DNA of 64,000 nucleotides, from contig DATKGY010000041.1 in NCBI GenBank assembly GCA_035510535.1, positions 29,493 to 93,492 of the forward strand, written 5' to 3'. Below, in pieces: positions 5,455-55,305 of the stretch. The stretch is from Patescibacteria group bacterium. GTDB lineage: Bacteria; Patescibacteriota; Microgenomatia; Levybacterales; UBA12049. A program made the translations under genes and the position numbers. Below the pieces are notes generated by a model that saw only the letters and a list, made by a program, of their open reading frames with translations, ran no database searches and was not told the DNA's origin. Within the stretch, counting starts at the first letter, position 1; each line of letters begins with the position of its first letter.

Positions 5455-5460
5455 TACGTA

Positions 5461-7143
5461 ATGAAGAAATTATTGAATTGGAAATTAGCATTACTTCTGA
5501 TAATCCTGTTGGCGGTTTTTTTAAGGTTCTACCAGTTGGGAAATATTCCCGCCGGCTTTTTAAACGATGAAGCTAACGCCGGATACGATGCTTATTCAAT
5601 ACTGCTTACCGGTAAAGATCAATGGAATAACTTCCTTCCTATCAATAACTTTATTGGTTTTGGTGATTTTCAGCCTCCAGTGAATCGGTATTCACAACTG
5701 CTTCCTATCAAAATTTTCGGGTCCAATGAGTTTTCCGTTAGGTTTATGTCCGCGTTGGCCGGAGTTTTATCTGTCGCCGCTTTATATTTCCTAGTGAAGA
5801 AATTAATTAATTGGAGGGCGGCTTTTTTCTCGGCTTTGCTTCTCGCAATCATGCCATGGGCAGTTGGATTAAATCGAATAGGGCATGAATCTAATCTGGC
5901 CATTTTATTTTTGATTGCCGCGCTTTTTTTCGGCTTGGTGCCAAAATCCGGCAAAAGTTTATTGATTGCTGTCTTTTTCCTCGCATTGTCGATGTATACC
6001 TATTCCGCTTATATTCTTTACGCGCCTTTAGTTTTGGTTGTGGTTCTAGGCGTAAATTACAAAAAGGGGAAAGGATACGGGTATTTACTAAAACCTTTAA
6101 TATTGCTCTTAATTATCATTTCGCCAATTATATTTCAAAAAAATTCTGCTTCGGTCAGATTTTCTCAAGTAGGTTTAACAACTAATGTCAGTAGCGTCGG
6201 TTTAATCAATAATCTTAATGATCAAAGAGGCCAGTGTTTAGCCGCATCCAATCCTTTTATTTGTAAAATAACCGATAACAAAGCGCTTCTTTTCCCCAGC
6301 GTTTTTGTTAAAAATTACTTATCTCATTTTTCCCCTAACTTTTTATACATCAGCGGTACACCGACGCAATTTTCCATTTTGCCCCAACGGGGCTTAGATT
6401 ATCTGTTCAATTTCCTGCCGTTAATCGCGGGAATTATCTTCTTTCTAAAAAATTATAAGCAGCGTAAATTAAGCGGCGCTTTATTCATATTATTTTTACT
6501 TGCTCCAGTACCCGATTCATTTACCAGCGACGGAAACTATACGCGCTCTTCCATGATGCAGCCGTTTATAGCTTTATTCGGCGGGTTAGGGATATATTAT
6601 TGCCTGGATTTCTTAGGAAGAAAAAAATGGTTAGAATATCTATTCACCACTTTAATTTTTCTGGTTATTTCTTTTGCTCTCATTTCCTTTTTTATAATTT
6701 ATAGCACTTACTTTAAAAATAATTATTCTATATATTCCCAATACGGATACAAAGATTTGGTAAAGAAAATCTCCTCGTGCAAAAATGATTACACTAAAAT
6801 CTATATTTCCAGACACCTAAATGATGCTAAGCAATATATCTATTATCTTTTTTATACGAAATATGATCCCCGAAAATATCAAAGTAAAAAAGACGTCAGT
6901 TATAGTGTAGGAGCAGACGGATGGGTATCTGTAGATAGAGTCGAGAACATATATTTTGTGCAGAATCTGCCCACAGTTTCTACGCAATCTGCGGAAACTA
7001 ATTCTGCGGTCCTTTTTATCTCCAACCCAGTCGATTTCCCCAAATCGCTAAAGCCTGTATTTGTCGTAAAAGATAAATTAGGGAATGTAATATTTGAAGC
7101 AGTGAGATCAACGGATTTGCTAGAATATATAAATAGGGAGTAA
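5461..7143 (+). CDS. GT39/PMT-like membrane glycosyltransferase, tandem paralog 2.
   Basis: 'LRFYQLGNIPAGFLNDEANAGYDAYSIL'; C-terminal 'YIYYLFYTKYDP'. Confidence 0.75.
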   Translation: MKKLLNWKLALLLIILLAVFLRFYQLGNIPAGFLNDEANAGYDAYSILLTGKDQWNNFLPINNFIGFGDFQPPVNRYSQLLPIKIFGSNEFSVRFMSALAGVLSVAALYFLVKKLINWRAAFFSALLLAIMPWAVGLNRIGHESNLAILFLIAALFFGLVPKSGKSLLIAVFFLALSMYTYSAYILYAPLVLVVVLGVNYKKGKGYGYLLKPLILLLIIISPIIFQKNSASVRFSQVGLTTNVSSVGLINNLNDQRGQCLAASNPFICKITDNKALLFPSVFVKNYLSHFSPNFLYISGTPTQFSILPQRGLDYLFNFLPLIAGIIFFLKNYKQRKLSGALFILFLLAPVPDSFTSDGNYTRSSMMQPFIALFGGLGIYYCLDFLGRKKWLEYLFTTLIFLVISFALISFFIIYSTYFKNNYSIYSQYGYKDLVKKISSCKNDYTKIYISRHLNDAKQYIYYLFYTKYDPRKYQSKKDVSYSVGADGWVSVDRVENIYFVQNLPTVSTQSAETNSAVLFISNPVDFPKSLKPVFVVKDKLGNVIFEAVRSTDLLEYINRE

Positions 7144-7165
7144 GAAAAATTGTGACTTAAAGAAA

Positions 7166-8794
7166 ATGTTCAAATTTATTAATTACAAATTACTGTTACT
7201 TTTAGTAGTAATAATCGCGGCATTTTTAAGGTTTTATCAATTGGGAAGCAATCCGCCTTCTTTAACTTGGGATGAGGCGGCTTGGGGATACAATGCTTAT
7301 TCAATCGGTATTGACGGGAAAGACGAATTTGGCCGGCTTTTGCCCCACGATTATCTTGAGTCTTTCGGCGATTTTAAACCACCGATGTATGTGTATCTGG
7401 ATGCTATTCCGGTAAAAGCTCTAGGACTAAATGAGTTTGCCACCAGAGTTCCATCCGCTTTATTTGGAGTTTTAACAGTTTTCTTAACTTATTTTCTGGT
7501 TCAAAGAATCTTCTGGAACTCAAAAGATAAACGGAAATACGCGCTTGCGTCAGCGTTTATCTTGGCAATTTCCCCGTGGCACATTATGTTGTCACGGGCC
7601 GCCTTTGAAGCCAATGTGGCAACTTTTTTCCTCGTCTTAGGAATCTGGGGATTTCTGGCGGCAACGCAGGATAAAAAATGGTACCTTTTAATTTCCGCCG
7701 TTTCTTTTGCTCTGTCAATGTACACTTTTAACACGGCAAGAGTCGTTGCTCCGCTTTTGGTAATTATTCTAGTATTGGCATTCAGAAAAAGATTATGGCA
7801 AATAAAAAAAGAAGTATTAATTGCGTTTATCATTGGGTTAGCGGTTTTCTTGCCTACTTTCCGGTTTCTGCTTACTCCGCAAGCGGCCTTGAGATTTCAA
7901 GAGGTCAATATTTTTTCGGATCCAAGCATCGTCAAAACCGCCAATCAGGAAATTGCCAATGACCAAAACGCATTCTGGTCAAAAATAATCCACAACCGAA
8001 GAGTGTTGTATTCTCTGGATTATGTCAAACACTATTTTGATAATTTAAGTCCCAGTTTCCTTTTTATCAAAGGAGATGGTAATCCTAAATTCTCAATTCA
8101 AAGCGTCGGGCAAATGTATCTTTGGGACATTCCGTTTGTCGTCATCGGAATCTTATTCTTAATCAGGAAAAAAGAGGGGCATTGGTGGTTAGTGCCGTTG
8201 TGGCTTTTAATCGGCATAATTCCTGCCGCAACCGCCGAGCAAACGCCGCATGCTTTGAGAATTGAAGCGAGTTTGCCAACGTTTCAAATAATTAGCGCTT
8301 ACGGTTTAATTATATTTCTATCAATGGTTAAGCGTTTTAGGTACGTAGTAGCGGCTGTTTTAATTGGCTTACTGTTGATAAATCTAGCATATTTTTGTCA
8401 CGATTATTTTGCCCATTATCCATCTGAGTTTTCCGGCGAGTGGCAATATGGCTACAAACAATCAATAGATTACGTGAAATCCGTAGAGAAAAATTATGAT
8501 TACGTCCAAGTTACCAGCGAACTGGGAAGGCCTTATATCTACTATCTTTTTTACACCAAAACGTTGCCATCCGATTACCGGAAAACTGCTGTCATTCAGC
8601 GGGACGCGTTTGGGTTTGTCACGGTTACGGGTTTTGGCAAATATCGATTTCCCGTTAATTATAATTATAGTTTGAGCAAAACAAAAAAAGTGCTTTACGT
8701 TAATACGCCTTATATCTTACCCAAAAACATTAAGATCCTTAAAACATTTTATTTATTAAACGGACAACCGGTTTTGGTTGCATATACGATATGA
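7166..8794 (+). CDS. GT39/PMT-like membrane glycosyltransferase, tandem paralog 3.
   Basis: 'LRFYQLGSNPPSLTWDEAAWGYNAYSIG'; C-terminal 'YIYYLFYTKTLP'. Confidence 0.75.
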   Translation: MFKFINYKLLLLLVVIIAAFLRFYQLGSNPPSLTWDEAAWGYNAYSIGIDGKDEFGRLLPHDYLESFGDFKPPMYVYLDAIPVKALGLNEFATRVPSALFGVLTVFLTYFLVQRIFWNSKDKRKYALASAFILAISPWHIMLSRAAFEANVATFFLVLGIWGFLAATQDKKWYLLISAVSFALSMYTFNTARVVAPLLVIILVLAFRKRLWQIKKEVLIAFIIGLAVFLPTFRFLLTPQAALRFQEVNIFSDPSIVKTANQEIANDQNAFWSKIIHNRRVLYSLDYVKHYFDNLSPSFLFIKGDGNPKFSIQSVGQMYLWDIPFVVIGILFLIRKKEGHWWLVPLWLLIGIIPAATAEQTPHALRIEASLPTFQIISAYGLIIFLSMVKRFRYVVAAVLIGLLLINLAYFCHDYFAHYPSEFSGEWQYGYKQSIDYVKSVEKNYDYVQVTSELGRPYIYYLFYTKTLPSDYRKTAVIQRDAFGFVTVTGFGKYRFPVNYNYSLSKTKKVLYVNTPYILPKNIKILKTFYLLNGQPVLVAYTI

Positions 8795-10458
8795 ATAAGA
8801 AATTAGTTTTAATAATACTGATGGGAATAATAATTTTGGCAGCCGGATTAAGGCTTTGGCAGCTTGGCAATATTCCGCCTTCGCCTGACTGGGACGAGGT
8901 GGCGTTGGGATATGATGCCTATTCGATTAGTCATACGGGGCGTGATGAATTTGGAAAGTTCCTGCCGGTAGTTCTTCGTTCATTTGACGATTACAAACCA
9001 GCTTTATATGCCTATCTTGCGGTTCCGGCGGTGGTAACTTTCGGTTTGAGTGTTTTTGCAGTTAGACTTCCTTCGGCCGTTTCCGGAATAATTTCGGTGA
9101 TTGCCGTTTTCTTTTTAATTCGGGAGCTTTTCCGGAATTATCGGTACAAAGATTGGTTAGCTTTGACTGCAAGTTTCATGCTGGCAATTTCTCCCTGGTC
9201 TTTGCAATTCTCCAGAGTTGGGTTTGAAGCAAATGTCGGGGATTGCCTAAATCTTTTAGCAGCTTTATTTTTCATCAAGGGCATAAACAACAGACGGTGG
9301 TTCTTATTTTTGTCGGCGCTTTTTGCCGGACTGAGTATTTATGTTTATCAAAGCGAAAAAGTCTTTACGCCACTTTTCATTCTTTTGTTGGCCGTAATTT
9401 ATTGGAGGGAATTATTCAAAATCCCTAAAAAATATTTGTTTGCGGTAATAGTTTTTGGTTTAATCATCGTGACGCCGATGCTTACTTATATAGTTACCAA
9501 CCGGGCAGCACTTTTAAGAGTAACGGGGACGAGCATTTTTTCCTACCAGACGGAGCTTTTAAAAACGGATACGCAGAAACTGCAACAGGATAAGAGTAAT
9601 AATGATAAATCGGGTTTGGTTTTGGACAACCGAAGAATTGTCTATACCGTAACCACAGTTTCCGGCTATATTTCACATTTTGACCCGAATTGGTTGTTTA
9701 TCTCAGGGGATATTGATAGACATCACGCGCCGGGAATGGGGATTTTGTATCTTTTCGAGTTGCCGCTGATACTTTTAGGGATATACGCGCTTTTATTTGG
9801 TGAATTTGACAAAAAAACAAAATTAATTATTTTTGGCTGGTTACTGCTTGCTCCGGTTCCTGCCTCCATCACAACCGGAGTCCCGCATGCGGTCAGAACG
9901 CTTAACTTTTTACCGACTTGGCAAATCTTGTCGGCGTTGGGGTTAGTTTCGGGATATTTGCTGCTTTCTAAAATGAGATTCCAAGTATCAAAGGTTAAGC
10001 TGTGGTATCTGCTTGCCCCTGTGTTTCTGGTATTTGCGCTGTTTAATATCAGTTACTATCTTAACCAGTATTTTGTCCAACTTAATTATTACGATTCCGC
10101 TTTTTGGCAATACGGTTACAAACAGGCGGTTGACGAAGTCAAACTTTTGCAAAAAAATTACAAAACAATCCTGATTTCCGATAACGCGCCGTTGGATAAA
10201 TCCTATATGTTTTTCCTGTTCTATCTTCAATATCCGCCACAGCTATATCAGCAAGTTGGTGAGAATAGCTCGGGAAGTTTTGTTTCCCATCATTCTTTCG
10301 GAAAATACACCTTTAGGCCAATTGATTGGAACAAAGATTCAAAACTCAAAGATGCTTTGATAATCGGTAGCCCGAAGGAGATTCCCCAAGGCGTGGGAAC
10401 AATTAAAACAATAAATAATCTAGATGGGACGCCGGCGATAAAAATTGTTGGAACATGA
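8791..10458 (+). CDS. GT39/PMT-like membrane glycosyltransferase, tandem paralog 4.
   Basis: 'LRLWQLGNIPPSPDWDEVALGYDAYSIS'; C-terminal 'YMFFLFYLQYPP'; ATGA overlap upstream. Confidence 0.75.
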   Translation: MNKKLVLIILMGIIILAAGLRLWQLGNIPPSPDWDEVALGYDAYSISHTGRDEFGKFLPVVLRSFDDYKPALYAYLAVPAVVTFGLSVFAVRLPSAVSGIISVIAVFFLIRELFRNYRYKDWLALTASFMLAISPWSLQFSRVGFEANVGDCLNLLAALFFIKGINNRRWFLFLSALFAGLSIYVYQSEKVFTPLFILLLAVIYWRELFKIPKKYLFAVIVFGLIIVTPMLTYIVTNRAALLRVTGTSIFSYQTELLKTDTQKLQQDKSNNDKSGLVLDNRRIVYTVTTVSGYISHFDPNWLFISGDIDRHHAPGMGILYLFELPLILLGIYALLFGEFDKKTKLIIFGWLLLAPVPASITTGVPHAVRTLNFLPTWQILSALGLVSGYLLLSKMRFQVSKVKLWYLLAPVFLVFALFNISYYLNQYFVQLNYYDSAFWQYGYKQAVDEVKLLQKNYKTILISDNAPLDKSYMFFLFYLQYPPQLYQQVGENSSGSFVSHHSFGKYTFRPIDWNKDSKLKDALIIGSPKEIPQGVGTIKTINNLDGTPAIKIVGT

Positions 10459-11990
10459 AGATAAGAATTAAAACTCAAAAATCAAAACTCAAAAATCTTC
10501 TCAGGATATATATCTTTAGTCCTATCTCATACGCTTTGCTTGCAATTATTTTGGTAGGTTCCTTTTTAAGATTGCAGGGAGTTTTTACCAATTCATTTGC
10601 TTTTACCTACGACGTTGGCAGAGATATGTTGGCGCTTTCAAATATTGTCCACTTTCATAGAATTCCTCTCATCGGAGCAACAACCGGATTGCCCGGAATC
10701 TTCTATGGTCCATGGTGGTATTATTTCTTGACCCCGTTTTTTATTCTATTTTCGGGAAATCCCCAAGGGATAGCCTTGACGATGTCATCAATAGGCATTT
10801 TGACTATAGCGATTGGTTTTGTCTTGGGAAAAAGATTGGGAGGAAATCTTTTAGGCTTAATTCTTGCCGCAGTAATTAGTGTTTCTTCCGTAATGGTTTC
10901 CTTGTCCGCTCAAATCTGGAACCCGAATATTTCGCCAATGTTTGTCATGCTAGGGTTATTGGTTCTAGAGAAGCTGCATAAAGAAGTTAAAAAAGACAAG
11001 CCAAAATATTATTTGCTACTTGGACTTCTTTTGGCTTTTGTGATTGACCTTGAAATAGTTTTTGGTCTTTTATTGGCGTTGGGGATTATCTTTTCAGTAT
11101 TAATTATTAATAGAAGCAGAATAAGCTTAAAAGATATTGTTTTTTTTGCTTTTGGCGGATTAATTATTCTTGCCCCAAGAATAATTTTTGAATTAAGACA
11201 CCAGTTTTTAATGACAAAGTCCTTCTTAGGATTGCTTGGGAAAACAGGAGTGCATCAGTCCGGTACGCTTTTGAGTCTTCTTGGTAATCGGTTGGGAGCG
11301 CTCTCGGATCAGTTCAATGGAACAATTGGTGCAAGTAATGAATTCGCCGGTTTGATTATCCTGCTGTTTATAATATTTTCTATAGCAGTCTTTTATAAAA
11401 AATCTGCAGAAGAGATAAAGAATTTGATTAAAACTTCCGTAACCGTAATCTTGATTTTTTTATTGGGAACAGTTTTCTTTAGTCATGATATTTGGCCGCA
11501 TTATTTGGTTGGCCTACCGGTTTTTTACCTTTTACTTTTTGCAATTGCCGTTTATTTATTGGCGAAAAATGTTTCGATAAAATTGGCGGTTTTAATAGCG
11601 CTAATAGTATTTCTTGCTAATCTAAATCCTTATTCTCAAATCCAAAATCTTAGTAAACCTTTGTGGGAAGGGGACGCATCCGTTTACCGTAACCAAGTTG
11701 CCGTTATTGATTATGTCTATAAACAAGCCGCCGGAAAGTCTTTTAAGTATGTTGTTTACACGCCGCCGGTCTATGATTACACCTATCAATATCTTTTTAA
11801 CTGGTATGGCCCTAAAAATTATCATTATTCACCGTCAAGTCAATCACATCTGGCATATTTTATTCTTGAGCCGGATTACCAAGATTCCGCAAGGCTAAGC
11901 AATTGGTTAAAACAGAGGGAAGCAGATGGGCTAATAATCAGGTCGCAAGAAGTAAAGGGCGGAATTATTGTCCAGACAAGAATACATTAA
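10455..11990 (+). CDS. GT-C-like polytopic membrane protein, family C paralog 1 (GRD...GP(W/L)YYY motif).
   Basis: 'TYDVGRDMLALSNIVHFHRIPLIGATTGLPGIFYGPWWYYFL'; C-terminal 'YTYQYLFNWYGPKNY'; paralogous to the ORFs at 13306 and 11994. Confidence 0.55.
   Translation: MKIRIKTQKSKLKNLLRIYIFSPISYALLAIILVGSFLRLQGVFTNSFAFTYDVGRDMLALSNIVHFHRIPLIGATTGLPGIFYGPWWYYFLTPFFILFSGNPQGIALTMSSIGILTIAIGFVLGKRLGGNLLGLILAAVISVSSVMVSLSAQIWNPNISPMFVMLGLLVLEKLHKEVKKDKPKYYLLLGLLLAFVIDLEIVFGLLLALGIIFSVLIINRSRISLKDIVFFAFGGLIILAPRIIFELRHQFLMTKSFLGLLGKTGVHQSGTLLSLLGNRLGALSDQFNGTIGASNEFAGLIILLFIIFSIAVFYKKSAEEIKNLIKTSVTVILIFLLGTVFFSHDIWPHYLVGLPVFYLLLFAIAVYLLAKNVSIKLAVLIALIVFLANLNPYSQIQNLSKPLWEGDASVYRNQVAVIDYVYKQAAGKSFKYVVYTPPVYDYTYQYLFNWYGPKNYHYSPSSQSHLAYFILEPDYQDSARLSNWLKQREADGLIIRSQEVKGGIIVQTRIH
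10470..10497. repeat. 14-nt unit (two heptamers, AAAACTC AAAAATC) x2 at the 5' end of the GT-C gene at 10455.
   Basis: aaaactcaaaaatcaaaactcaaaaatc; encodes KTQKSKLKNL. Confidence 0.8.
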
Positions 11991-11993
11991 TTT

Positions 11994-13295
11994 ATGAAAA
12001 GAACGCAAACATATTGGAAATCACTTTTTAGAAAGAAATATTTACTTTTAGTTTTTGGGATTTTCCTATTTGAATTATTTTTAAGAACTTATAATTTAGG
12101 TTTTAAAGATCCTTTCGGATTTGATCAGGTTGATAATGCCTGGGCTGCTAAAAATATTATCATCAATCATTGGTATCCTTTGGTGGGAATGGTGGCAAAG
12201 ACAGACAGCGGAATTTTTATCGGCCCGGCATACTATTATTTCGCCGCCTTTTTCTATTGGATATATAATTTAAATCCCATTGCTTCCGAAGCGATAGCCG
12301 TTGTCAGTGCAGTTTTTACTTTTTGGACAATATTCTATGTAGTTAAGAAACTATTTTGCGTGGAAATAGCAATTATTGCGCTACTTATTAATACTTTCTG
12401 TTTTAATACGATTCTTTTCGACGGGATACAATGGCCGGTACAATTACTTCCCGCGGTCTCTTTAATAATTTTTTATCTACTTTATAGAGTAATCCTAGGT
12501 GATGTCAAAAAATTAATTCCCTTGGCAATTGCGATCGGGGTTGCTTTAAACTTACATTTTACGGCGATATTTTTTCCAATCATTGTAATACTAACTTTAC
12601 CATTATTCCCCCGGACAAAAGAAACGCTCAAGTACATTTTAATTTCTTTTCCTTGTTTTTTTGTTTGGTTGATTCCCAACTTAGCGTCGTTCTTACTGAA
12701 TAAGACTTCTGCCTCAGCCGGTGGAGGATATCTTACAACTTATTTTTTAGGCTTTCATCTTAGAAGAATGCTGCAGTTAACCGGCGACGCCATAATTCAA
12801 TTTGATCCATACTTGCTTTTGGCTAAGATTAAGCCCCTAAAAGTAATTATCTTACCTGTTTTCATGTTGGTTTATTTATTCAAATCATTTAATTCAGCTG
12901 GAAGGAAATTTGTTTATTTGGTTTTATTATGGTTCTTAATCCCATGGCTGGTATTTACAACTTATGGCGGGGAAATAAGTGATTACTATTTTATTATTAG
13001 CCGATTTGTGGCGCTGATAATACTTTCTTACTTCATTTACTTAGTTTGGAACACTAAAAATATACTCGCGAAACTATTTGTCGTTTTATTTTTGATAATT
13101 TATTGTGCGTACGGATTCATTACCTTTCTTCCCTATAAAGACGAAGGCAGTTTATATAAGCATGAACAAGCGGCAAAACAGGTAGTCGACAGCGGAAGAA
13201 GAATAGAATTCCAAGTGGGTGTACCCGAGTCTTATTTATATTATTATTACATGAGGCAAAAGGGGATAGCGGTATATATATCAAAATATAGATAG
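11994..13295 (+). CDS. GT-C-like polytopic membrane protein, divergent member of family C.
   Basis: 'FDQVDNAWAAKNIIINHWYPLVGMVAKTDSGIFIGPAYYYF' aligns with the GRD...GPxYYY loop of the ORFs at 10455 and 13306. Confidence 0.5.
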   Translation: MKRTQTYWKSLFRKKYLLLVFGIFLFELFLRTYNLGFKDPFGFDQVDNAWAAKNIIINHWYPLVGMVAKTDSGIFIGPAYYYFAAFFYWIYNLNPIASEAIAVVSAVFTFWTIFYVVKKLFCVEIAIIALLINTFCFNTILFDGIQWPVQLLPAVSLIIFYLLYRVILGDVKKLIPLAIAIGVALNLHFTAIFFPIIVILTLPLFPRTKETLKYILISFPCFFVWLIPNLASFLLNKTSASAGGGYLTTYFLGFHLRRMLQLTGDAIIQFDPYLLLAKIKPLKVIILPVFMLVYLFKSFNSAGRKFVYLVLLWFLIPWLVFTTYGGEISDYYFIISRFVALIILSYFIYLVWNTKNILAKLFVVLFLIIYCAYGFITFLPYKDEGSLYKHEQAAKQVVDSGRRIEFQVGVPESYLYYYYMRQKGIAVYISKYR

Positions 13296-13305
13296 AATTT
13301 AACAA

Positions 13306-14805
13306 ATGAAAAAATATCTAGTTGCTTTAAACAATTTTAAGTATCGAAACCCATTATGCTTATGTATTCTTTTTGTCATCGGATTTTTGCTGAGAATTTA
13401 TTTGATTGGCCAGAATTTATTTTTCGGACCGGAGCAGGGAAGAGACATGCTGGTGGTTAAAAGTATTGTCATAGATCATAAACTCGTGCTAATCGGCCCA
13501 ACGACTGCAGTTGAAGGCATTTACCACGGTCCCTTATATTATTACCTTTCCACAATCCCCTTCTTTTTTAGCAAAGGTAATCCCCTTTTTATAGCCTTAT
13601 TTTTTATTTTCCTTAACGCTTTATCCGTATTCTTAGTGTATCTGGTCGGGAAAGAATTGTTTTCCAGAAAAATAGGGTTAATCGCGTCTTTATTTTTTAC
13701 ATTTTCTTTCGGCGCGGTGGTAATGGCGAGATGGTTGTCTCATCCTCCGCTAATTATTCCAGTCTGCTGTTTGTTTTTTCTGTTTTTAGCCAAGTTTATA
13801 AAGGGAAATAATAAATATTTAATTCCAACGGCTATTATTTATGGAGTCGCGACGCAAACGGAATTTTCCAACCTGATAATTTTTACTTTCATTACTTTTT
13901 TTGCGGTGGTTGTTTTTAGGAAAAGATTTCTTGAACAAAAAATAATCAGTTTACTTATTGCGCTTGCTTTGGTGATTTTGCTACCTATATTCAATTTTGT
14001 TCTTTTTGATTTAAGACATAACTTTTTAATTACCAGAAGTCTAATAAAATCTCAGGCGCACAGACCGCAATTTGTAGGTTATTTTTTGCATACCCTAACT
14101 GGCTCAATCTGGCAGTTTATGCAAGTTTTTTCCGATGTGGTTAGTCCGTTGCATTTGTTAGTTGCCGCGGTTATTTTTATCGCCGCCTTTTTTGCGCTGA
14201 TTAAATTAAGAGATAAATATAAAACCGGAACGGCATTGATGTTAATCTGGTTGTTTTCTCCTTTTGTCGCCTTTATTCTTCTTCGCTATAACCCTTTGTA
14301 TCATTATTTTACCGCTTCCATTATTGCAATTATCATCTTGATTGTCGTTCTTGTAGATTATCTCTCATCTCTCAAAAGAGGAGTTGGTTTAATTGCGATA
14401 GGCATATTGGTCGCGTTTAATTTATGGTCACTGCATGCTTATTTGCCTAATAATCTCAATGTATTTTTTCAATCCACTCAGCCCGATTTGAAATATAAAG
14501 ACCAGCAAGCAGTTATACAAAGAATATACAAAGAGGCTAACGGGACACCCTTTTATTATCAGGCTTATACCATTCCTTACTGGATGCAGGATGGGTGGCA
14601 ATATCTTTTCTGGTATTACGGTAAACAGTATGGATATCTTCCCAAGCAAACGAATAAGGGTTTGTTGTTTGTTATAATTCAGGATGACCCAAGCACTAAG
14701 CTTTATCAAACCAATTGGCTTAGGGACACGGTTAGCAAATGGGGAATAGAAGAGAATGAATTTAAATACGGGATATTAACCGTAGAGAAAAGATATGTTC
14801 AATAA
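13306..14805 (+). CDS. GT-C-like polytopic membrane protein, family C paralog.
   Basis: 'FGPEQGRDMLVVKSIVIDHKLVLIGPTTAVEGIYHGPLYYYL'; C-terminal 'WQYLFWYYGKQYGY'. Confidence 0.55.
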   Translation: MKKYLVALNNFKYRNPLCLCILFVIGFLLRIYLIGQNLFFGPEQGRDMLVVKSIVIDHKLVLIGPTTAVEGIYHGPLYYYLSTIPFFFSKGNPLFIALFFIFLNALSVFLVYLVGKELFSRKIGLIASLFFTFSFGAVVMARWLSHPPLIIPVCCLFFLFLAKFIKGNNKYLIPTAIIYGVATQTEFSNLIIFTFITFFAVVVFRKRFLEQKIISLLIALALVILLPIFNFVLFDLRHNFLITRSLIKSQAHRPQFVGYFLHTLTGSIWQFMQVFSDVVSPLHLLVAAVIFIAAFFALIKLRDKYKTGTALMLIWLFSPFVAFILLRYNPLYHYFTASIIAIIILIVVLVDYLSSLKRGVGLIAIGILVAFNLWSLHAYLPNNLNVFFQSTQPDLKYKDQQAVIQRIYKEANGTPFYYQAYTIPYWMQDGWQYLFWYYGKQYGYLPKQTNKGLLFVIIQDDPSTKLYQTNWLRDTVSKWGIEENEFKYGILTVEKRYVQ

Positions 14806-16450
14806 TTTTAAGAAAAAAAATAATTTACTTTTTGTCTTAGTCACGGTTTTTTTATTGCTAGTTCCGATTGTTTCCTTAGCGCATAGCGGTTTGCCGATAA
14901 CGCATGACGGACAGGACCATGTCGCAAGAATCGCCAATTTTTATCAAAATCTTTTGGAAGGTAATTTAATTCCCAGATGGGCTGCCAATCTTAACTGGGG
15001 ATACGGCCACCCGATTTTGGAATTTTTATATCCCCTGCCTTCTTATTTCGCTTCTTTCTTTCATCTGGTTGGTTTTTCTTTGGTTGACGCGACAAAAATT
15101 GTTTATGGTTTGGGGATGGTTTTGTCGTTGTCTTTTATGTTTTTATGGCTTAAGCAATTTTTGGGCAAAGAGCCGGCGCTTCTGGGAGCCTTTTTGTACA
15201 CTTATGCCCCTTATAGATTCGTTGATCTTTATGTTAGAGGAGATATCGGCGAAAATTTGGCTTTTGCTTTTGTACCCCTGATTTTATATTTTATTTTCAA
15301 GCTTTATAAAAAGCCTAAGCTAATATATTCATTGCTGGGTGCTTTGTCTTTAGCGCTTTTGATACTCTCGCATAATGCGATTGCTCTTATAACCGTACCG
15401 TTTATTTTATTTTACGCTATATACCTTATTTGGTTGTCCAAATTCAATAAATCATTAATCATTAATCTTTCATCCTTAATCATTTTCGGTTTTGCCCTGT
15501 CGGCCTTTTTCTGGGCGCCGGCATTGTTAGAGGGTAAATACACACTTCGCAATATCGTTACAAAAGGCACGTATGTAAATAGTTTTGTTAGTTTTAAAGC
15601 TTTGATTTACGGGCCATGGAGCTATGGCGGGAGCGGTGAATTTACTGTTCAATTAGGTATTATTCAATGGCTGGGTTTAATTCTGTCCCCGGTTTTGGCT
15701 ATTCTCTTTTGGTTTAAAAAAGATAAAAGATACCTACTTGTTTTAGCATGTCTTCTGTATACTTTGTTAGCGATATTTTTAATGCTACCGATATCAAATT
15801 TTCTTTGGACAAAAATAATGCTTTTGCAAAACTTCCAATTTCCATGGCGTTTTTTGGCTATTACGGTTCTTTCAACCTCAATATTGGCGGCTTTGCTAAT
15901 TTATAAACTTCCCAAGAAGTTACAGCTTGTCACGGTATTAATTTTAATCGCAGTAGTTTTGTTTATAAGTAAAGATTATCTAAAGGCCAAAGATTATTTG
16001 TATAAACCGGCAGGTTTTTATACAGGAATATATAATGGTACAACCGATACCGGTGAAAGTTCACCTATCTGGTCAGTACGGTTCATGGAGCATGCACCAA
16101 AAGCGCATTTGGAGATGCTTGACGGAAAAGCCACTATTAAGGGAATAAAAAGAACTTCTACGGATCATCTCTATACGGTTAATGTCGCAAAGAGGACTTT
16201 ATTTGAAGAAAACACCCTTTATTTCCCGGGCTGGCAGATAAAAGTCAATAACGTTCCGGTTAGCATTGAATTTCAGGACATGCAATATCGGGGAACGATG
16301 TTATTTATCTTAGATAAAGGAAATTATGTCGTCGAAGCAAAATATTCGGAGACAAAATTACGGTTAATTTGCGACTTAGTATCTTTAATCAGTTTAATAT
16401 CTCTGGCCGGATTATTTGGCTTCGGGTTTGTAAAGACAAAGCTTTCTTAG
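14795..16450 (+). CDS. GT-C-like polytopic membrane protein, family B paralog 2.
   Basis: 'LAHSGLPITHDGQDHVARI...RWAANLNWGYG'; C-terminal 'LYFPGWQIKVNN...FQDM'. Confidence 0.6.
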   Translation: MFNNFKKKNNLLFVLVTVFLLLVPIVSLAHSGLPITHDGQDHVARIANFYQNLLEGNLIPRWAANLNWGYGHPILEFLYPLPSYFASFFHLVGFSLVDATKIVYGLGMVLSLSFMFLWLKQFLGKEPALLGAFLYTYAPYRFVDLYVRGDIGENLAFAFVPLILYFIFKLYKKPKLIYSLLGALSLALLILSHNAIALITVPFILFYAIYLIWLSKFNKSLIINLSSLIIFGFALSAFFWAPALLEGKYTLRNIVTKGTYVNSFVSFKALIYGPWSYGGSGEFTVQLGIIQWLGLILSPVLAILFWFKKDKRYLLVLACLLYTLLAIFLMLPISNFLWTKIMLLQNFQFPWRFLAITVLSTSILAALLIYKLPKKLQLVTVLILIAVVLFISKDYLKAKDYLYKPAGFYTGIYNGTTDTGESSPIWSVRFMEHAPKAHLEMLDGKATIKGIKRTSTDHLYTVNVAKRTLFEENTLYFPGWQIKVNNVPVSIEFQDMQYRGTMLFILDKGNYVVEAKYSETKLRLICDLVSLISLISLAGLFGFGFVKTKLS

Positions 16451-46535: not shown

Positions 46536-47474
46536 ATGATTTCCGCAGTTGTGCCCGCATTTAACGAGGAAGAAAGTTTTAGTGAGCTTTATGGGGAATT
46601 AACAAAGGTTTTACCTGCGCTCGACAACAACTACGAAATTATATTTATTGACGATGGATCAACGGATAACTCTTTGGATGTTCTTAAAAAAATTGCAGCA
46701 AAAGATAAAAAGGTAAGAATTTTTTCTTTCAGGAAGCATAGAGGTAAGGCAGATGCCTTAATAGCCGGTTTTAGGGTGGCCAAAGGTGATTATATCTTCA
46801 CTATGGATTCAGACTTGGAAGATAAGCCCTCGGAGATGCTAAAGCTCTATAAAAAAATAAAAGAGGGGAATGACGTGGTCGTAGGCTGGAGGAAGAACAG
46901 AAAGCATTCGCTAAGTAGAGTAATTTCTTCAAGATTTTCAAATTTCGTAATAAGTTTATTGTGGGGATTTAAGCTTCATGATCATAATTGTGGCTTAAAG
47001 GTGTTTACAAAAGATGCGGCAAAGTCTCTGCGCCTTTATGGCGGTCTGTATCGATTTATGCTGCTATTGGTTTATCTAAAAGGATTTAAGGTAGCAGAAG
47101 TAGAGATTGTTCACCAAAACAGGAAGTATGGAAAATCGAAATATGGATTTTTTAGGTTATGGAGAGATGTGCCGGATGCGCTAACGATTTTTTTCCTTAC
47201 TAAGTTTGGGGAAAGGCCACTTCATTTTTTTGGATTTATTGGTGGAATAGTTTCCGCAATCGGACTGATTATTCTCACATATTTAGCTGTTCTTCATTTT
47301 CAAGGAGAAAAGATAGGCAACAGGCCACTTCTGACTTATGGGGTACTCTTTGTTGTCGCTGGATTCCAGATTTTATTTACAGGGTTTTTAGCTGATCTTA
47401 TTTTACATATCTCACAAAAGGGCAATCATGAGAATGAAGTACCTGCTGAAATGTTTAAATATAAAACCGAATGA
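46536..47474 (+). CDS. GT2 polyprenol-phosphate glycosyltransferase (GtrB/ArnC-like) with two C-terminal TM helices.
   Basis: 'ISAVVPAFNEEESF...IIFIDDGSTDNS', 'MDSDLED'; C-terminal helices. Confidence 0.85.
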   Translation: MISAVVPAFNEEESFSELYGELTKVLPALDNNYEIIFIDDGSTDNSLDVLKKIAAKDKKVRIFSFRKHRGKADALIAGFRVAKGDYIFTMDSDLEDKPSEMLKLYKKIKEGNDVVVGWRKNRKHSLSRVISSRFSNFVISLLWGFKLHDHNCGLKVFTKDAAKSLRLYGGLYRFMLLLVYLKGFKVAEVEIVHQNRKYGKSKYGFFRLWRDVPDALTIFFLTKFGERPLHFFGFIGGIVSAIGLIILTYLAVLHFQGEKIGNRPLLTYGVLFVVAGFQILFTGFLADLILHISQKGNHENEVPAEMFKYKTE

Positions 47475-48043
47475 AGATAGGCATTGATATTTCTCAATTG
47501 GCGTATCCGGAAACGGGAGTGGCGAATTATTTAGAAAATCTTGTTGAAAATTTAGTTCAAGTAGATTCGGAGAACGAGTATATACTTTTTTACTCCTCGT
47601 TAAGAAAAAATTTTCAATTTTCAATTTTCAATTTTCAATCAAATCCAAATGTTTCAATTAAACAATTTAGGATACCGCCGACGGCTTTAGATATTCTTTG
47701 GAACAAGTTACATATTCTTCCGATAGAAAATTTTATTGGCGAGGTCGATATTTTTATCACTTCCGACTGGACAGAGCCGCCCGCCAAAAAAGCCAAGAAA
47801 GCAACGATTCTTTACGATCTCATGATTTACAAATATCCCGAAGAATCTCACCACCAGACCCAGTTCAATCCTCTTAAAATGATTATCTCTCCGAACGTTG
47901 TTGAAGTTCAAAAGCGAAAATTACAATGGGTAAAGAAAGAGTCGCAAAGAATTTTGTGTATTTCTGAAGCTACAAAAAGAGATGCACAGGAGATTTTGGG
48001 AATTCCTCAAAGCAAGCTAGCGGTAATTTACCCGGGCTTCTAG
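47471..48043 (+). pseudogene. Truncated GT4 glycosyltransferase: N-terminal Rossmann domain only (190 aa), ending where the C-domain should begin.
   Basis: 'MKIGIDISQLAYPETGVANYLENL' is paralogous to the N-termini of the GT4s at 21549, 49062 and 62221. The ORF stops at 'AVIYPGF', with no donor-binding half. Confidence 0.55.
47611..47638. repeat. (TTTTCAA)x4 heptanucleotide tandem repeat inside the GT4 fragment.
   Basis: ttttcaattttcaattttcaattttcaa; encodes NFQFSIFNFQ. Confidence 0.9.
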
Positions 48044-48046
48044 ACA

Positions 48047-48085
48047 TATCTGGAAATATTTGGTAATATCTGGAAGTATATGGAA
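48047..48085. promoter_or_regulatory. Two tandem ~19-nt direct repeats (ATATCTGGAARTATWTGG) overlapping the fic start codon. Candidate operator or insertion junction.
   Basis: atatctggaaatatttggta / atatctggaagtatatggaa read directly. Confidence 0.4.
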
Positions 48086-49057
48086 ATTCCTCTAAAGTAT
48101 GAGTTGACAAAGATAATGGTCGATTTGATCTCCAAAATCGAGGCAAAAAGAGCAATTATTGAAAACACTCCGGTTTCGGAAAGCTTAACAAAAACACTGC
48201 GAAGACAGTCTCTTCTTAAAAGTTCTTTATTTTCCGCCAAAATTGAAGGTAATAAGCTTAATTTAGCAGATTTGAAGCGTGTAGATAAGTTTAACCCTGA
48301 TTACGAGCAAAGAATTGAAGTGGAAAATATTTTAGCGGCGTTATCTTTTGTAAACAGCGCTCCGCATAAAAATATTAGCCTTGATTATATCTTAAATCTG
48401 CACGCAATAGTCATGAAGCGTTTGCGAAGCGATTTGGGAAGAATACGCAATGAGCCGAGCGCAATATTTAATGAATCAGGATTTCCTGTCTATATTCCGC
48501 CTCCGCCATCCGAGCTCGGTGGTTTGCTTGATAGGCTCGTTGCATATCTTAGCGTTAAGACAAATGAAAATGTCTTTATCAAAGCTTCCCTTGCGCATCT
48601 CTCTTTTGAGAAAATCCATCCTTTTATTGACGGTAATGGTAGAGTGGGAAGACTTTTGTTCCACGCAGTCACCATAAAAGAAGATTACCCTTTTAAAGGG
48701 CTGCTTTCAATAGAAGAGTTATTGAATGAAAGAAAAGCCGAATATTATGAATATTTGGATCGAAGCGATGCGACTTCATTTATAGAGTTCATGTTGGAAA
48801 TTATCAATGAACAGCTTGAAAAGGTGCTTGATGAGATTAATAATAAACAGGAAACCTCGGAAGATTTGCTTTTGCCCCGCAGAAAAGAGATATTAGATTT
48901 AATAAGGGATCATCGGGTCATGACGTTAGATGCCGTAAGAAGGCGTTTTTTAAGGGTTTCACCAAGAATGATAAGGTACGATTTGAAAAAACTGGAGGAA
49001 CAAGGGTTTATAATTAAACTTGGAGCTACCAGAGGAGCGATGTATAAGCTAAAATAA
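48080..49057 (+). CDS. fic: Class II Fic (AMPylase-type) protein with a C-terminal winged-helix HTH domain.
   Basis: Fic motif 'HPFIDGNGRVGRLL'; N-terminal inhibitory motif 'SAKIEGN' ((S/T)xxxE(G/N)); C-terminal DeoR-like 'LIRDHRVMTLDAVRRRF...RYDLKKLEEQGFI'. Confidence 0.85.
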   Translation: MEIPLKYELTKIMVDLISKIEAKRAIIENTPVSESLTKTLRRQSLLKSSLFSAKIEGNKLNLADLKRVDKFNPDYEQRIEVENILAALSFVNSAPHKNISLDYILNLHAIVMKRLRSDLGRIRNEPSAIFNESGFPVYIPPPPSELGGLLDRLVAYLSVKTNENVFIKASLAHLSFEKIHPFIDGNGRVGRLLFHAVTIKEDYPFKGLLSIEELLNERKAEYYEYLDRSDATSFIEFMLEIINEQLEKVLDEINNKQETSEDLLLPRRKEILDLIRDHRVMTLDAVRRRFLRVSPRMIRYDLKKLEEQGFIIKLGATRGAMYKLK

Positions 49058-49061
49058 AAAT

Positions 49062-50183
49062 ATGATTATCGGAATTGACGGAAATGAGGCTAATATCGAA
49101 AATAAAGTCGGCATCGGCGAATATGCTTACGAACTTATTTGTCAATTTTATCAGACTGTTTCGGAAAGAAAAGATCTTAAATTCAGAATTTATCTTAAAG
49201 ACAAGCCGCATCTAGACATGCCGGTGCCAACCGAAAATTGGCAGTATCAGATTGTCGGACCGAAAAAATTCTGGACGCAAATCGGTCTTCCCTTAAAACT
49301 TTTTATGGAAACGAAAAAGCCCGATGTATTTTTCAGCCCCAGCCACTACGCGCCCAGGTTTAGCCCTGTTCCAACCGCGATTTCGATTATGGACCTTTCC
49401 TACATTCACTTTCCCGAGCTTTTTACCAAACACGATTTGTATCAGCTTGTAAATTGGACCAAATATTCCGCCAAAAACGCCCGGAAAATATTCACGATTA
49501 GCAATTTCAGCCGGAATGATATAATAAAAACATATAAGAAAAATCTGGAAGACGTAATTACGACATATTTAGGAATCAAAGGAATTGAGAACTTAAGCAT
49601 CAAAACTCAAAATATGAATGATTTAAACAAGAAATTCGGAATTACAAAACCTTACATTTTATTCGTCGGGACGCTCCAGCCCCGAAAAAATATCGTTAAA
49701 TTGATTGAGGCTTTCTCGCTACTTAAAAATAAAGATACCGAGCTGGTAATTGTAGGGAAAAAAGGTTGGTTGTTTGAGGAGATTCTAGCAGCTCCCGAAA
49801 AATTTGGAGTTACAGAAAGAGTTAAATTTTTGGATTTTGTCGAAAACGAAGACTTACCAGGCTTATATAAAAACGCGCTGTGCTTTGTTTTGCCAAGTCT
49901 CTACGAGGGTTTTGGATTACCGGTTCTGGAAGCAATGAAATTTGGCTGCCCGACAGTTATCAGCGATACTTCCAGTCTGCCGGAGGTCGGCGGAGACGCG
50001 GCTTTATATTTTGATCCGCAAAGCGTGGATGACATTGCAAAAAAGCTTGAAACGGTAATCTCTGACGAAAAATTGCGAACCGAAATGATAAAAAAAGGTT
50101 ATAATCAAGCAAGGAAGTTTTCTTGGGAAAAAACAGCCAAAGAAACCTTGAAAGTTTTGGAGGAACTAGGAAATGCAAGATAA
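49062..50183 (+). CDS. GT4 glycosyltransferase.
   Basis: 'EGFGLPVLEAMKFGCPTVISD'; 'ILFVGTLQPRKN'. Confidence 0.85.
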   Translation: MIIGIDGNEANIENKVGIGEYAYELICQFYQTVSERKDLKFRIYLKDKPHLDMPVPTENWQYQIVGPKKFWTQIGLPLKLFMETKKPDVFFSPSHYAPRFSPVPTAISIMDLSYIHFPELFTKHDLYQLVNWTKYSAKNARKIFTISNFSRNDIIKTYKKNLEDVITTYLGIKGIENLSIKTQNMNDLNKKFGITKPYILFVGTLQPRKNIVKLIEAFSLLKNKDTELVIVGKKGWLFEEILAAPEKFGVTERVKFLDFVENEDLPGLYKNALCFVLPSLYEGFGLPVLEAMKFGCPTVISDTSSLPEVGGDAALYFDPQSVDDIAKKLETVISDEKLRTEMIKKGYNQARKFSWEKTAKETLKVLEELGNAR

Positions 50184-50778
50184 AACAGGAAGAGTATTAT
50201 CAACACCGGAAATAATTAGAAAAATTATCATAAGAATAAGAACAATTTTTTGGGAGTTAATTTGCTGGAAGTTGGCAATTACGGGATATATTCCTTCGCA
50301 TTATTTAAGAAGATTTGTTTACCGGTTTTGGGGAATAAAAATCGGTAAGGGTTCAACTATTCACATGGGAGCGCACTTTTATTATCCCCCAAATATCTCA
50401 ATCGGACAGGACTCAATAATCGGCGAAAGGGTAGTTTTGGACGGAAGAGCGAAACTGACGATTGGTAATCACGTTGACATTGCCTCGGAAGTGATGATTT
50501 ATAACGCGCAACATGACGTAAGCGTAGAGCATTTTGCGGCGGTTGAAAATATTTCCCCAGAACCGGTAACGATCGAAGATTATGTTTTTATCGGACCAAG
50601 GGCAATAATTCTTCCCGGCGTCACTATTCACAAAGGTGCAGTGGTTGGAGCGGGTGCGGTGGTTACGAAAGACGTTGAGGAGTTTAAAATTGTCGGCGGT
50701 GTGCCGGCCAAAGAAATCGGCGAAAGGCAAAACAGAAATCCCAACTATAAACTTGGCCGGGCCGCATGGTTTAGGTAA
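50173..50778 (+). CDS. Hexapeptide-repeat (LbH) sugar O-acetyltransferase (WcaF/MAT-like).
   Basis: Repeated [LIV]GxxxxI hexads 'IGERVVLDG...IGNHVDIASEVMIYN...IGPRAIILPGVTIHKGAVVGAGAVV'. Confidence 0.8.
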   Translation: MQDKTGRVLSTPEIIRKIIIRIRTIFWELICWKLAITGYIPSHYLRRFVYRFWGIKIGKGSTIHMGAHFYYPPNISIGQDSIIGERVVLDGRAKLTIGNHVDIASEVMIYNAQHDVSVEHFAAVENISPEPVTIEDYVFIGPRAIILPGVTIHKGAVVGAGAVVTKDVEEFKIVGGVPAKEIGERQNRNPNYKLGRAAWFR

Positions 50779-54841: not shown

Positions 54842-54955
54842 GCATAGGGAATGATAAGAACTAGAAAAAGTTCCATGTCCGAGTCCAGCCTTCGGAGTTG
54901 TGTAGCCTCAAATATATAGTGAGTAACATGGTGGGGTAAATGATATAATTGGTTA

Positions 54956-55285
54956 ATGAACTGGAATATTTTATTATTCGAAACACAAAGAGGCGAAAAA
55001 CCAGTTGAGGAGTTTATAATTTCAAAATCTCCGCAGGCTAAAGCAAAAATTGCGCATCTGATTAATCTCCTTGAAATTCATGGAAATATTTTAGGCATGC
55101 CACATAGCAAGCAACTGACGAAAGGTCTATATGAGTTAAGAATTAGAGGTAAAGAAGAAATACGCATTTTATACTGCTTTAAAGAGAAAGATGTTTATTT
55201 GCTTCATGGATTTAAAAAACAAACCCAAAAGACGCCTAGTAAGGAAATAGCTATAGCTTTAAAGCGAATAAGACTATTGACATAA
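54956..55285 (+). CDS. Type II toxin, RelE/ParE superfamily (HigB/Gp49-like).
   Basis: 109 aa; 'LYELRIRGKEEIRILYCFKEKDVYLLHGFKKQTQKTP' is typical of Gp49/HigB-like toxins; followed by an XRE HTH gene. Confidence 0.7.
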   Translation: MNWNILLFETQRGEKPVEEFIISKSPQAKAKIAHLINLLEIHGNILGMPHSKQLTKGLYELRIRGKEEIRILYCFKEKDVYLLHGFKKQTQKTPSKEIAIALKRIRLLT

Positions 55286-55305
55286 TATAACATATATGTT
55301 ATATT
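55284..55305. promoter_or_regulatory. 22-bp perfect palindrome between the toxin and antitoxin genes (candidate operator).
   Basis: aatataacata|tatgttatatt read directly; revcomp-identical. Confidence 0.5.

Follow-up and report, generated by a model that had tools for sequence, protein, structure and literature searches.

Genes at the junction

We analysed a stretch of 64 kb from a genome of the Patescibacteria (order Levybacterales, assembly GCA_035510535.1, contig DATKGY010000041.1; this whole stretch is hereafter called the window), in which part of a long glycan-biosynthesis cluster on the + strand, with a GC content of ~36%, holds a gene for the N-terminal half of a glycosyltransferase followed by a gene for a Fic protein with a C-terminal domain of the winged helix-turn-helix (wHTH) type. 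The features were confirmed from the open reading frames (ORFs) and their translations, and the neighbouring genes were named by Pfam. This text deals with the origin of the half-sized gene, with the fic gene behind it, and with the repeats that lie in the spacer of 36 nucleotides (nt) between them. Three genes have to be introduced at this point:

47471-48043, + strand: GT4N, a protein of 190 amino acids (aa) that comprises only the N-domain of a family 4 glycosyltransferase (GT4; PF13439 only)
48080-49057, + strand: fic, a class II Fic protein with a wHTH domain, 325 aa (PF02661 and PF08220)
49062-50183, + strand: GT4full, a complete GT4 of 373 aa (PF00534, E = 7e-41)

GT4N ends in AVIYPGF, followed by a TAG stop, and GT4full starts 4 nt after the fic stop. 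A previous reading made from the letters of the DNA alone (the sequence-only reading) had correctly described a 190-aa ORF limited to the GT4 N-domain, ending in AVIYPGF, with the fic ATG 36 nt after it, and had explained this arrangement by a Fic cassette that inserted into or recombined with a duplicated GT4 gene, deleted its C-terminal half and left a non-functional fragment of 190 aa. GT4N and fic share the same frame in the window, with the TAG stop and 12 sense codons between them (48041-48082); a read-through of the TAG fusing the two proteins was considered and dropped, as the frame relation is not kept in loci L030 or L048 and is probably a coincidence.

Conservation of GT4N

Relatives of GT4N were encoded in 420 candidate stretches of species-representative genomes, the best 80 of which were taken as species-level loci and screened for the window proteins by tblastn; 75 of them have both GT4N and GT4full. 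The GT4N ORF has 172-202 aa and ends in ...YPGx in 80/80 loci, and everywhere, as in the window, the C-terminal nucleotide-sugar-binding domain (Glycos_transf_1, with its EX7E motif) is missing. More than 120 clusters of homologues with 64-80% identity, every one of them 177-198 aa long, were retrieved from a search of 5.8 billion proteins, and their alignment has 43 invariant columns and the common end ...YPGx. The names carried by identical and related proteins point to the Patescibacteria, near Candidatus Levybacteria. The ratio of nonsynonymous to synonymous substitution rates (dN/dS) was 0.06-0.14 over nine genome pairs and indistinguishable from that of the neighbouring full-length genes.

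The part that is kept is the N-terminal Rossmann-like domain, as indicated by the only Pfam match (PF13439, E = 3.4e-8, residues 16-189), by the AlphaFold2 (AF2) model (predicted local distance difference test, pLDDT, 85; predicted template modelling score, pTM, 0.81) and by matches to GT-B folds. A single Foldseek search of this model against the PDB gave generic GT-B matches only (query-normalised template modelling scores of ~0.5-0.57), among them the GT4 members MshA (3c48), BshA (6n1x), WbnH (4xyw) and PglA (8dqd), and revealed no function; no NCBIfam name was found for GT4N. Its end coincides with the boundary between the N- and C-domains (the domain linker) of full-length GT4s, and the truncation point fell exactly on this boundary when the protein was aligned with them. 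The paralogy claimed for GT4N and the intact GT4 genes of the window is detectable for the genes at 21549 and 62173/62221 (phmmer E = 3e-7 and 6e-8, respectively), and "clearly" paralogous was too strong a term for the adjacent gene at 49062, where the similarity is weak (19% identity, no phmmer match).

Relaxed selection, variable ends or a restriction to one lineage, any of which could betray a pseudogene, were not seen in GT4N. Because its lengths and its end are conserved, its dN/dS is low and its AF2 model is confident, GT4N is neither a pseudogene nor a recent remnant; it is an old, conserved, stand-alone protein in Levybacteria-type genomes.

The junction between GT4N and GT4full has no insert in 56 of the 75 loci, fic in four and other inserts in 15, which makes fic an accessory gene, and in fic-less loci GT4N often overlaps the next GT4 by 4 nt. 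An insertion of fic that truncated a GT4 gene is compatible with an ORF that stops at a GT-B domain boundary, with fic directly after it, and with the absence of fic from this junction in many relatives. The same short gene with the same end is nevertheless present in every one of the 80 loci, including those where the junction is empty and the two GT4 genes overlap, and it is under strong purifying selection; remnants of fic or of the repeat array described below, which would be signs of fic loss, were not found in fic-less junctions, and only genomes that are far more distant (41-46% identity) have a full-length gene of the ancestral type in this position. Moreover, the N-domain family is conserved as a stand-alone protein and has fic at the same position in several related genomes. 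The truncation scenario is refuted by these observations, and we consider it extremely improbable.

Within the coding sequence of GT4N lies one further feature:

47609-47639, + strand: perfect heptanucleotide repeat (AATTTTC) x 4.4 (Tandem Repeats Finder, TRF)

It encodes the loop NFQFSIFNFQS, which has low confidence in the model. An identical 28-nt repeat occupies the same codon position in at least nine other species-level orthologues (L017, L019, L023, L032, L034, L035, L040, L043, and L080), and it is identical even though genomes that are much closer to each other already show saturation at synonymous sites. Gain or loss of one copy would shift the GT4N frame. A phase-variation switch or an element acting at the nucleotide level are possible readings, separate from the question of fic. 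The 177-aa variants of GT4N were examined as variants of this repeat, and this was rejected, since their 13-aa deletion lies elsewhere. One representative protein of 386 aa (P0273) joins a C-terminal fragment of a family 2 glycosyltransferase (GT2; residues ~40-120) to a GT4N-like domain (184-358), and represents a fusion between GT4N and the GT2 upstream of it, or else a read-through that was miscalled.

The Fic protein

The product of fic matches Fic (PF02661, E = 1e-20) and HTH_DeoR (PF08220, E = 7e-7, residues 267-313), and the following elements were located in its gene:

48233-48253, + strand: inhibitory motif S52-A-K-I-E56-G-N58, matching (S/T)xxxE(G/N); same chain as the Fic core and N-terminal to it
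48617-48652, + strand: active-site motif H180-PFIDGNGRVG-R191 (residues 180-191), HPFIDGNGRVGR, matching HxFx(D/E)GNGRxxR
48875-49051, + strand: wHTH domain, residues 266-324 (PF08220, DSSP on the AF2 model)

In 34 Fic homologues the active-site residues H180, P181, F182, D184, G185, N186, G187, R188, G190, and R191 are invariant, as are S52, A53, I55, E56, G57, and N58 of the inhibitory motif, which lies in a predicted helix (34-55). The AF2 model (pLDDT 89) has three helices (266-278, 283-289, and 295-307) and a beta-hairpin wing (311-314/321-324) in the wHTH domain; the predicted recognition helix is formed by residues 295-307 (nt 48962-49000), with R299 (codon AGG, 48974-48976) at mid-helix. 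The Fido fold was recovered with a Foldseek probability of 1.00 to 7cb8, 4rgl, 7xux, 3eqx, and FICD, the top matches of the full-length protein being 7cb8 from M. marinum, 4rgl, CccR (7xux), SoFic (3eqx/3zec), and CbFic2 (8cil), while by sequence the PDB matches were 4rgl, FICD and SoFic.

Pfam, the invariance among homologues and the model thus bear out what had been read from the sequence, i.e., a full catalytic motif, SAKIEGN as inhibitory motif and a winged helix at the C-terminus, and the product is predicted to be a class II autoinhibited Fic (Fido) enzyme with a C-terminal DeoR-like winged helix. A separate small antitoxin gene that provides the inhibitory helix, as expected for class I (type II toxin-antitoxin, FicT/FicA-like) Fic proteins, was not found, the inhibitory motif being intramolecular and the gene neighbours of 57 relatives not conserved.

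A tandem 10-nt array in front of fic

A pair of direct repeats of ~19 nt had been noted at the junction. Two repeats of ~18 nt do exist at 48046-48063 and 48066-48083, and they are better described as one array with a period of 10 nt and 4.2 copies (48046-48087; TRF), which overlaps a promoter-like site:

48050-48089, + strand: array of four 10-nt units in the register nnGGnAAnAT, CTGGAAATAT, TTGGTAATAT, CTGGAAGTAT, and ATGGAAATTC (TRF, repeat search)
48041-48069, + strand: promoter-like site, TAGACA (48041-48046), 17 nt, and the TG-extended -10 hexamer TAATAT (48064-48069); 9/12 matches, TG present

The last unit of the array is formed by the first 10 nt of fic. The significance of the array comes from comparative data and not from statistics of the window, in which it is only mildly unusual when taken alone (three overlapping matches against 0.41 expected, with 2 of 100 shuffles reaching three). 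No array was found elsewhere in the window or in fic-less junctions. It is conserved upstream of fic in L007, L015, L030, L048, L092, L093, and L095, and it is kept where the identity of the Fic proteins is only 60-68%. To cover the family more widely, 69 non-redundant loci with Fic relatives down to 33% identity, most of them in unrelated contexts, were compared over the 70 nt upstream of the start codon: the mean self-identity at a lag of 10 nt was 0.555, against 0.20-0.30 at lags of 5-9 and 11-15 nt and 0.27 inside the gene. Scanning both strands of the 1.3 Mb of fetched DNA, all 49 strict arrays (at least three units) lay directly upstream of a fic gene (49/49, two of which are reverse-strand readings of the same arrays). 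Because four distant plasmid-borne Fic-wHTH genes (28-32% identity) have no 10-nt array, the array appears to be a trait of this Fic subfamily; in phage records only partial or distant matches were present.

Across the family the arrays have three to six tandem units, four in the window, and their phase to the gene is constrained. Outside the clade of the window, exactly 6 nt separate the end of the last unit from the start codon in 25/59 loci, and the distance is 6 modulo 10 in 39/59. The last hexamer is usually TAATAT, TAAGAT, TAAAAT or TAACAT, with TG before it. A super-period of 20 nt, as expected for dimer-sized sites, is unsupported family-wide, the variable positions being 0.46 identical between adjacent and 0.48 identical between alternate units. 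In the window, the promoter-like site ends 10 nt before the fic ATG, leaving a very short predicted leader. Given the phase of the arrays and the standard geometry of sigma-70 promoters, we infer that transcription starts at or next to the ATG and yields a leaderless mRNA.

Covariation of the array with residue 299

The base at position 3 of the unit (register nnN3N4N5AAnAT) covaries with residue 299 of the Fic protein, which lies in the motif R-M-I-R299-Y-D-L:

Residue 299 Arg: G at position 3 (GG at 3-4) in 41/42 loci; 96% G over 161 units
Residue 299 His: T in 14/15 loci; 88% T and 2% G over 52 units
Residue 299 Ser: A or G, 2 loci scored (L107, L155); L167 has AGCAA units by eye
Residue 299 Ala: T in 2 loci

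With relatedness judged from the Fic core alone, i.e., with the wHTH domain excluded, residue and base have switched more than once. L134 (His, TGCAA units) has only Arg-type proteins as nearest relatives, L107 and L155 (Ser, AGCAA units) are likewise nearest to Arg-type proteins, and L159 (Arg, units xxGCTAA and xxGACAA) is nearest to His-type proteins, position 3 having changed there and position 4 not. Contacts between arginine and guanine are the commonest base read-out in protein-DNA complexes. Because it is exclusive to fic, periodic, phased to the start codon and covaries with residue 299, the array most plausibly serves as binding site (operator) for the wHTH domain of the Fic protein encoded behind it. 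The comparative evidence thus lends strong support to one of the two roles that had been suggested for the repeats, an operator through which the HTH would regulate its own gene.

Part of these observations could also be explained if the array were a promoter or translation-initiation element only (a reiterated -10-like, UP-like or Shine-Dalgarno-like GGA element) that is read by RNA polymerase or the ribosome, as the last unit resembles an extended -10 (TGnTAAnAT), the distance of the array to the ATG is fixed and the region is AT-rich. A general signal of this kind would not be expected to be confined to one gene family, as is the case for the strict arrays, nor to covary with a residue in a recognition helix, and the junction has neither a notable RNA structure (folding z = -0.47) nor an Rfam match other than a chance scaRNA hit on the other strand (E = 0.83). 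We regard this explanation as unlikely and favour the operator. The only inverted repeat reported was a 12-nt palindrome inside GT4N.

A variable slot and the exchange of fic

Besides fic, the inserts between GT4N and GT4full include genes for Bro-N, 23S-rRNA-intervening-sequence-protein (IVP)/Avd-like and NYN nuclease proteins, an oppositely oriented PMT_2 gene and unknown ORFs of 519-624 aa. Further fic-bearing junctions were found on metagenome contigs (L092, L093, L095, and L096), and in a tree built from the flanking genes the loci that carry fic are dispersed. When the window is compared with L007, the synonymous divergence (dS) of fic amounts to 0.39 and that of GT4N, GT4full and the acetyltransferase gene downstream to 1.5-1.7, and nucleotide identity and dS point to a tract that the two lineages share:

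47950-49110 (approximate boundaries), no strand assigned: recombination tract, window lineage / L007 lineage

The tract begins ~90 nt before the end of GT4N, takes in the array and fic, and stops ~50 nt into GT4full. Its identity is 86-95%, except for two sub-windows of 0.79-0.81 near 48890-49035, and that of the flanks is ~60-80%. This pattern is the signature of homologous recombination through conserved flanks, by which fic was exchanged between the two lineages. More generally, fic moves between related genomes by homologous recombination via the conserved flanking genes, and the junction is a recurrent slot for accessory genes. No recombinase, transposase or integrase was found beside fic in the window or consistently in its relatives, and the array lies on one side of the gene only. 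There is no compositional anomaly at fic, with a GC content (0.36-0.39) equal to that of the neighbouring genes, and the window contains no tRNA genes as possible integration targets.

Relatives of the Fic protein are also encoded at other sites of glycan clusters (L094, L101), as well as in contexts that have no relation to them at all. No conserved neighbour that could act as an antitoxin, target or recombinase was found around fic in 57 relatives, where the neighbours include Ddl, PEMT-like, GIY-YIG, and IS200-like genes.

The second role that had been suggested for the repeats, remnants of a target site, belongs to a broader alternative in which the array has no regulatory function and consists of scars left by the insertion of a mobile fic cassette (a duplicated target site, an attachment site or recombination remnants). 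Such scars would suit the position of the array at the upstream boundary of a variably present gene that has been exchanged between lineages. They would hardly consist of three to six copies that are arranged head to tail at a strict 10-nt period and confined to one side of the gene, with no matching copy downstream of fic in the window; the arrays travel with fic into dozens of unrelated contexts at a fixed phase to the start codon, are absent from fic-less junctions, have no recombinase or transposase linked to them and covary in unit sequence with the predicted DNA-reading residue of the encoded protein. In addition, the recombination tract ends inside the flanking genes and not at the repeats. 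Target-site remnants are thereby contradicted, and the scar explanation as a whole is very improbable.

Three side observations concern the surroundings of fic and of the slot. Small stand-alone GIY-YIG proteins (~82-106 aa) are encoded beside the Fic-wHTH gene in four otherwise unrelated metagenome loci (L102, 5049-5318; L105, 2452-2718; L125, 4354-4674; L141, 5090-5338). The IVP/Avd-like genes in the slot between GT4N and GT4 are preceded by short tandem repeats of their own, with a period of ~8 nt and the core (G)AGTAT, e.g., agtattcagtattgagtatggagtatgcagtatcgagtatg in L087; these lie at 5574-5610 in L036, in the first ~60 nt after the GT4N stop in L066, L067 and L087, and at 5578-5967 in L026. 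Finally, a distant Fic-wHTH homologue on a plasmid of Azotobacter salinestris (L174, NZ_CP045301.1, 18025-19002) is flanked by the two subunit genes S and R of a type I restriction system and overlaps the end of the S gene.

Loss of the C-half and the proposed role of GT4N

When 1.84 billion representative proteins were searched with a profile, the closest relatives not belonging to the ~190-aa family were GT4s of 360-386 aa, to whose residues 1-190 GT4N aligns with E of about 1e-55. In L177/L178 and L179 such a full-length GT4 is followed at once by the GT4full orthologue and then by the acetyltransferase orthologue; the N-half of the first gene is 41-46% identical to GT4N, and the identities of the two orthologues are 40-42% and 57-62%, respectively. 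On the short contig L172, the start of a GT4full-like gene likewise comes directly after a full-length relative of GT4N. Since a full-length GT4 sits in the same slot in distant genomes, the C-half was lost in place, well before the present fic arrived and independently of it. GT4N descends from a complete GT4 gene whose nucleotide-sugar-binding half disappeared in an ancestor of a large Levybacteria clade, and the remaining N-domain has since been kept as a functional stand-alone protein in a conserved cluster. Like the retaining glycosyltransferases of GT4, it has the N-terminal Rossmann-like fold, the Pfam signature and a full-length GT4 ancestry; unlike them, it is without the C-terminal nucleotide-sugar site and EX7E. 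As the whole C-terminal domain with these elements is gone, GT4N alone cannot transfer a sugar and cannot be a self-sufficient GT4 enzyme.

Between the stop of GT4N and the start of GT4full the gap measures -7 to +4 nt in 31 of the loci (80 entries scored, including a few that duplicate a locus). Translationally coupled partners are spaced in this manner, and GT4N would usually be coupled to GT4full in this way. Its most likely role is that of a non-catalytic partner of the adjacent full GT4, for instance an acceptor-binding or adaptor subunit.

N-domains of the GT-B fold also occur as separate polypeptides in Alg14/Alg13 and in bacterial split GT-B pairs, and GT4N could by analogy be one half of a split glycosyltransferase that pairs with a separate C-domain-only protein to form an active GT-B enzyme. 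It is a clean and conserved N-domain, and it largely keeps the conserved loop motifs of its full-length relatives (IDISQ...TGV, SDWTEPP, and KYPE). Against this, neither the 64-kb window nor the genes called in those related loci that were inspected include a C-domain-only GT4 (the search did not extend to whole genomes), the conserved neighbour of GT4N is a complete GT4 of ~370 aa, the family is GT4-like and not MurG/Alg14-like (or GT1/GT28-like), and an invariant Tyr stands in place of the His of the HDL motif. A split enzyme therefore seems quite unlikely, and a non-catalytic partner of GT4full remains the preferred role. In GT4full itself (49062), MDL is found where the GT4 paralogues at 21549 and 62173 have HDL and GT4N has YDL.

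Neighbouring genes in the cluster

The conserved order of the cluster is GT2, GT4N, GT4, acetyltransferase, GT2, and a membrane protein of ~1050 aa (1058 aa in the window). The flanking members next to the three genes listed above are:

46536-47474, + strand: GT2, polyprenol-phosphate-sugar-synthase-like (PF00535, E = 1e-32)
50173-50778, + strand: hexapeptide-repeat acyltransferase (PF00132)

The GT2 stop overlaps the GT4N start by 4 nt (ATGA), and a GT2 relative lies upstream of GT4N in many related loci, in some of them directly adjacent. GT4full is the conserved downstream neighbour and directly follows GT4N in most of the 75 genome loci. The acyltransferase, the next conserved member, retains its synteny in almost every related locus, the distant L177 and L179 among them, and is followed in the window by the second GT2 and the 1058-aa membrane protein. 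Gene calls on the identical contig L001 (12877 onward) add a Gp49-family gene (PF05973, HigB-like) of 109 aa after this membrane protein, at ~54950-55290 of the window. Further upstream, at 2099-16450, nine + strand ORFs of 433-565 aa are packed end to end without interruption and may encode paralogous membrane or glycan-related proteins.

Interpretation and comparison with known systems

We think it likely that two independent things stand side by side at this junction, an old stand-alone GT4N and an accessory, autoregulated fic with its own operator. As a solitary accessory gene, fic would carry its own control region, which overlaps the extended -10 and the start codon; several wHTH domains could occupy the units in head-to-tail order along a single face of the DNA, with residue 299 of the recognition helix reading position 3 of each unit (Arg-G in the window), and their binding would repress the near-leaderless promoter of fic itself (negative autoregulation). 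Since 4 nt lie between the end of fic and GT4full, and the + strand around fic showed no terminator-like site, one may speculate that the fic promoter, or Fic acting as a roadblock, influences the downstream glycan genes.

Several points weigh against parts of this interpretation. The array of the window clade abuts the ATG instead of ending 6 nt before it, so that the promoter geometry is less clear there; GGAAG could instead serve as a ribosome-binding site for read-through transcripts; and fic may also be transcribed from the upstream operon, given that no terminator-like site precedes or follows it on the + strand. The independent covariation events were counted on neighbour-joining trees that carry no support values, and the units were chosen by requiring AAnA(T/C), which leaves only unit positions 1-5 and 8 informative. 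For GT4N, the proposed role was derived from synteny and gene spacing alone, and the invariant Tyr of the family replaces a His that is conserved in the HDL motif of full-length relatives.

Autoregulation by Fic-wHTH proteins is already known, having been shown experimentally for CccR and suggested for SoFic. CccR of Yersinia pseudotuberculosis (7xux), an effector secreted by the type VI secretion system, represses its own promoter via its HTH, which as a back-to-back dimer binds two inverted 10-bp boxes 26 bp apart, near -35 and -10 (PMC9755527). The window protein resembles it in being a class II Fic with an N-terminal inhibitory motif (SARIEG in CccR, SAKIEG here), a canonical Fic motif and a C-terminal HTH, and Foldseek aligned the whole Fic model with it, at a sequence identity of only ~22%. 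It differs in its predicted operator of 3-6 direct, contiguous 10-bp units, inverted boxes spaced by ~26 bp being absent, and nothing suggests that the window Fic is secreted.

The SoFic dimer of Shewanella oneidensis binds the 100-bp stretch that precedes its own start codon and has EF-Tu as an AMPylation target (bioRxiv 10.64898/2026.07.09.737422). CbFic2 of Coxiella burnetii (8cil) binds DNA via its HTH, DNA binding stimulating its activity (PMC10628234). N-terminal helix, inhibitory helix, Fic core and wHTH follow each other in the same order in both proteins as in the window Fic, and no defined operator sequence is reported for either. The identity to them is less than 25%, the score against the NCBIfam SoFic equivalog is 52 with a cutoff of 550, and their targets (EF-Tu and histone H3) are not transferable to the window Fic and its presumed AMPylation.

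The predicted arrangement on the DNA also recalls a different group of proteins. Winged-helix regulators of the OmpR/PhoB type bind tandem direct repeats that are one helical turn apart, and in both cases winged-helix domains are expected head to tail on direct repeats of ~10 bp that overlap a promoter. Unlike these regulators, the Fic protein has no receiver domain and no sequence relation to them, its wHTH is fused to an enzyme and its contiguous 10-mers number up to six. Different here from the known Fic-wHTH systems are, on comparative grounds, the predicted operator architecture, the probable leaderless promoter, the proposed residue-base rule and the host group.

A joint reading of all features would go further: Fic would polymerise head to tail on its DNA template, which would switch it between AMPylation and deAMPylation, in the way that DNA binding acts on CbFic2, and gate the downstream surface-glycan genes, since fic lies 4 nt upstream of a full GT4 in Levybacteria, and GT4N would be a non-catalytic GT4 subunit, perhaps switched by the heptanucleotide repeat. 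If true, this would link a stress-sensing AMPylase to cell-envelope glycosylation, but we consider it unlikely as a whole, and the two independent features remain the preferred interpretation.

Implications

The junction illustrates that what looks like an insertion that truncated a gene when genomes are scanned can be two unrelated old features that happen to be adjacent, and short GT4 ORFs of the GT4N kind should not be annotated as pseudogenes. Fic-wHTH proteins are widespread, yet their DNA binding has been studied experimentally for three of them (CccR, SoFic, and CbFic2) and the operator sequence defined for CccR alone. The subfamily described here, found in Patescibacteria-type genomes and metagenomes, offers a simple predicted operator of tandem nnGGnAAnAT units, together with a predicted one-residue/one-base rule (R-G, H-T, S-A) that is testable by mutant swaps, and its conserved promoter geometry suggests leaderless transcription. 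GT4N, in turn, represents an unusual "half enzyme", kept next to a complete GT4 and under purifying selection in many uncultivated Levybacteria-type genomes, the role of which must be non-catalytic or trans-acting.

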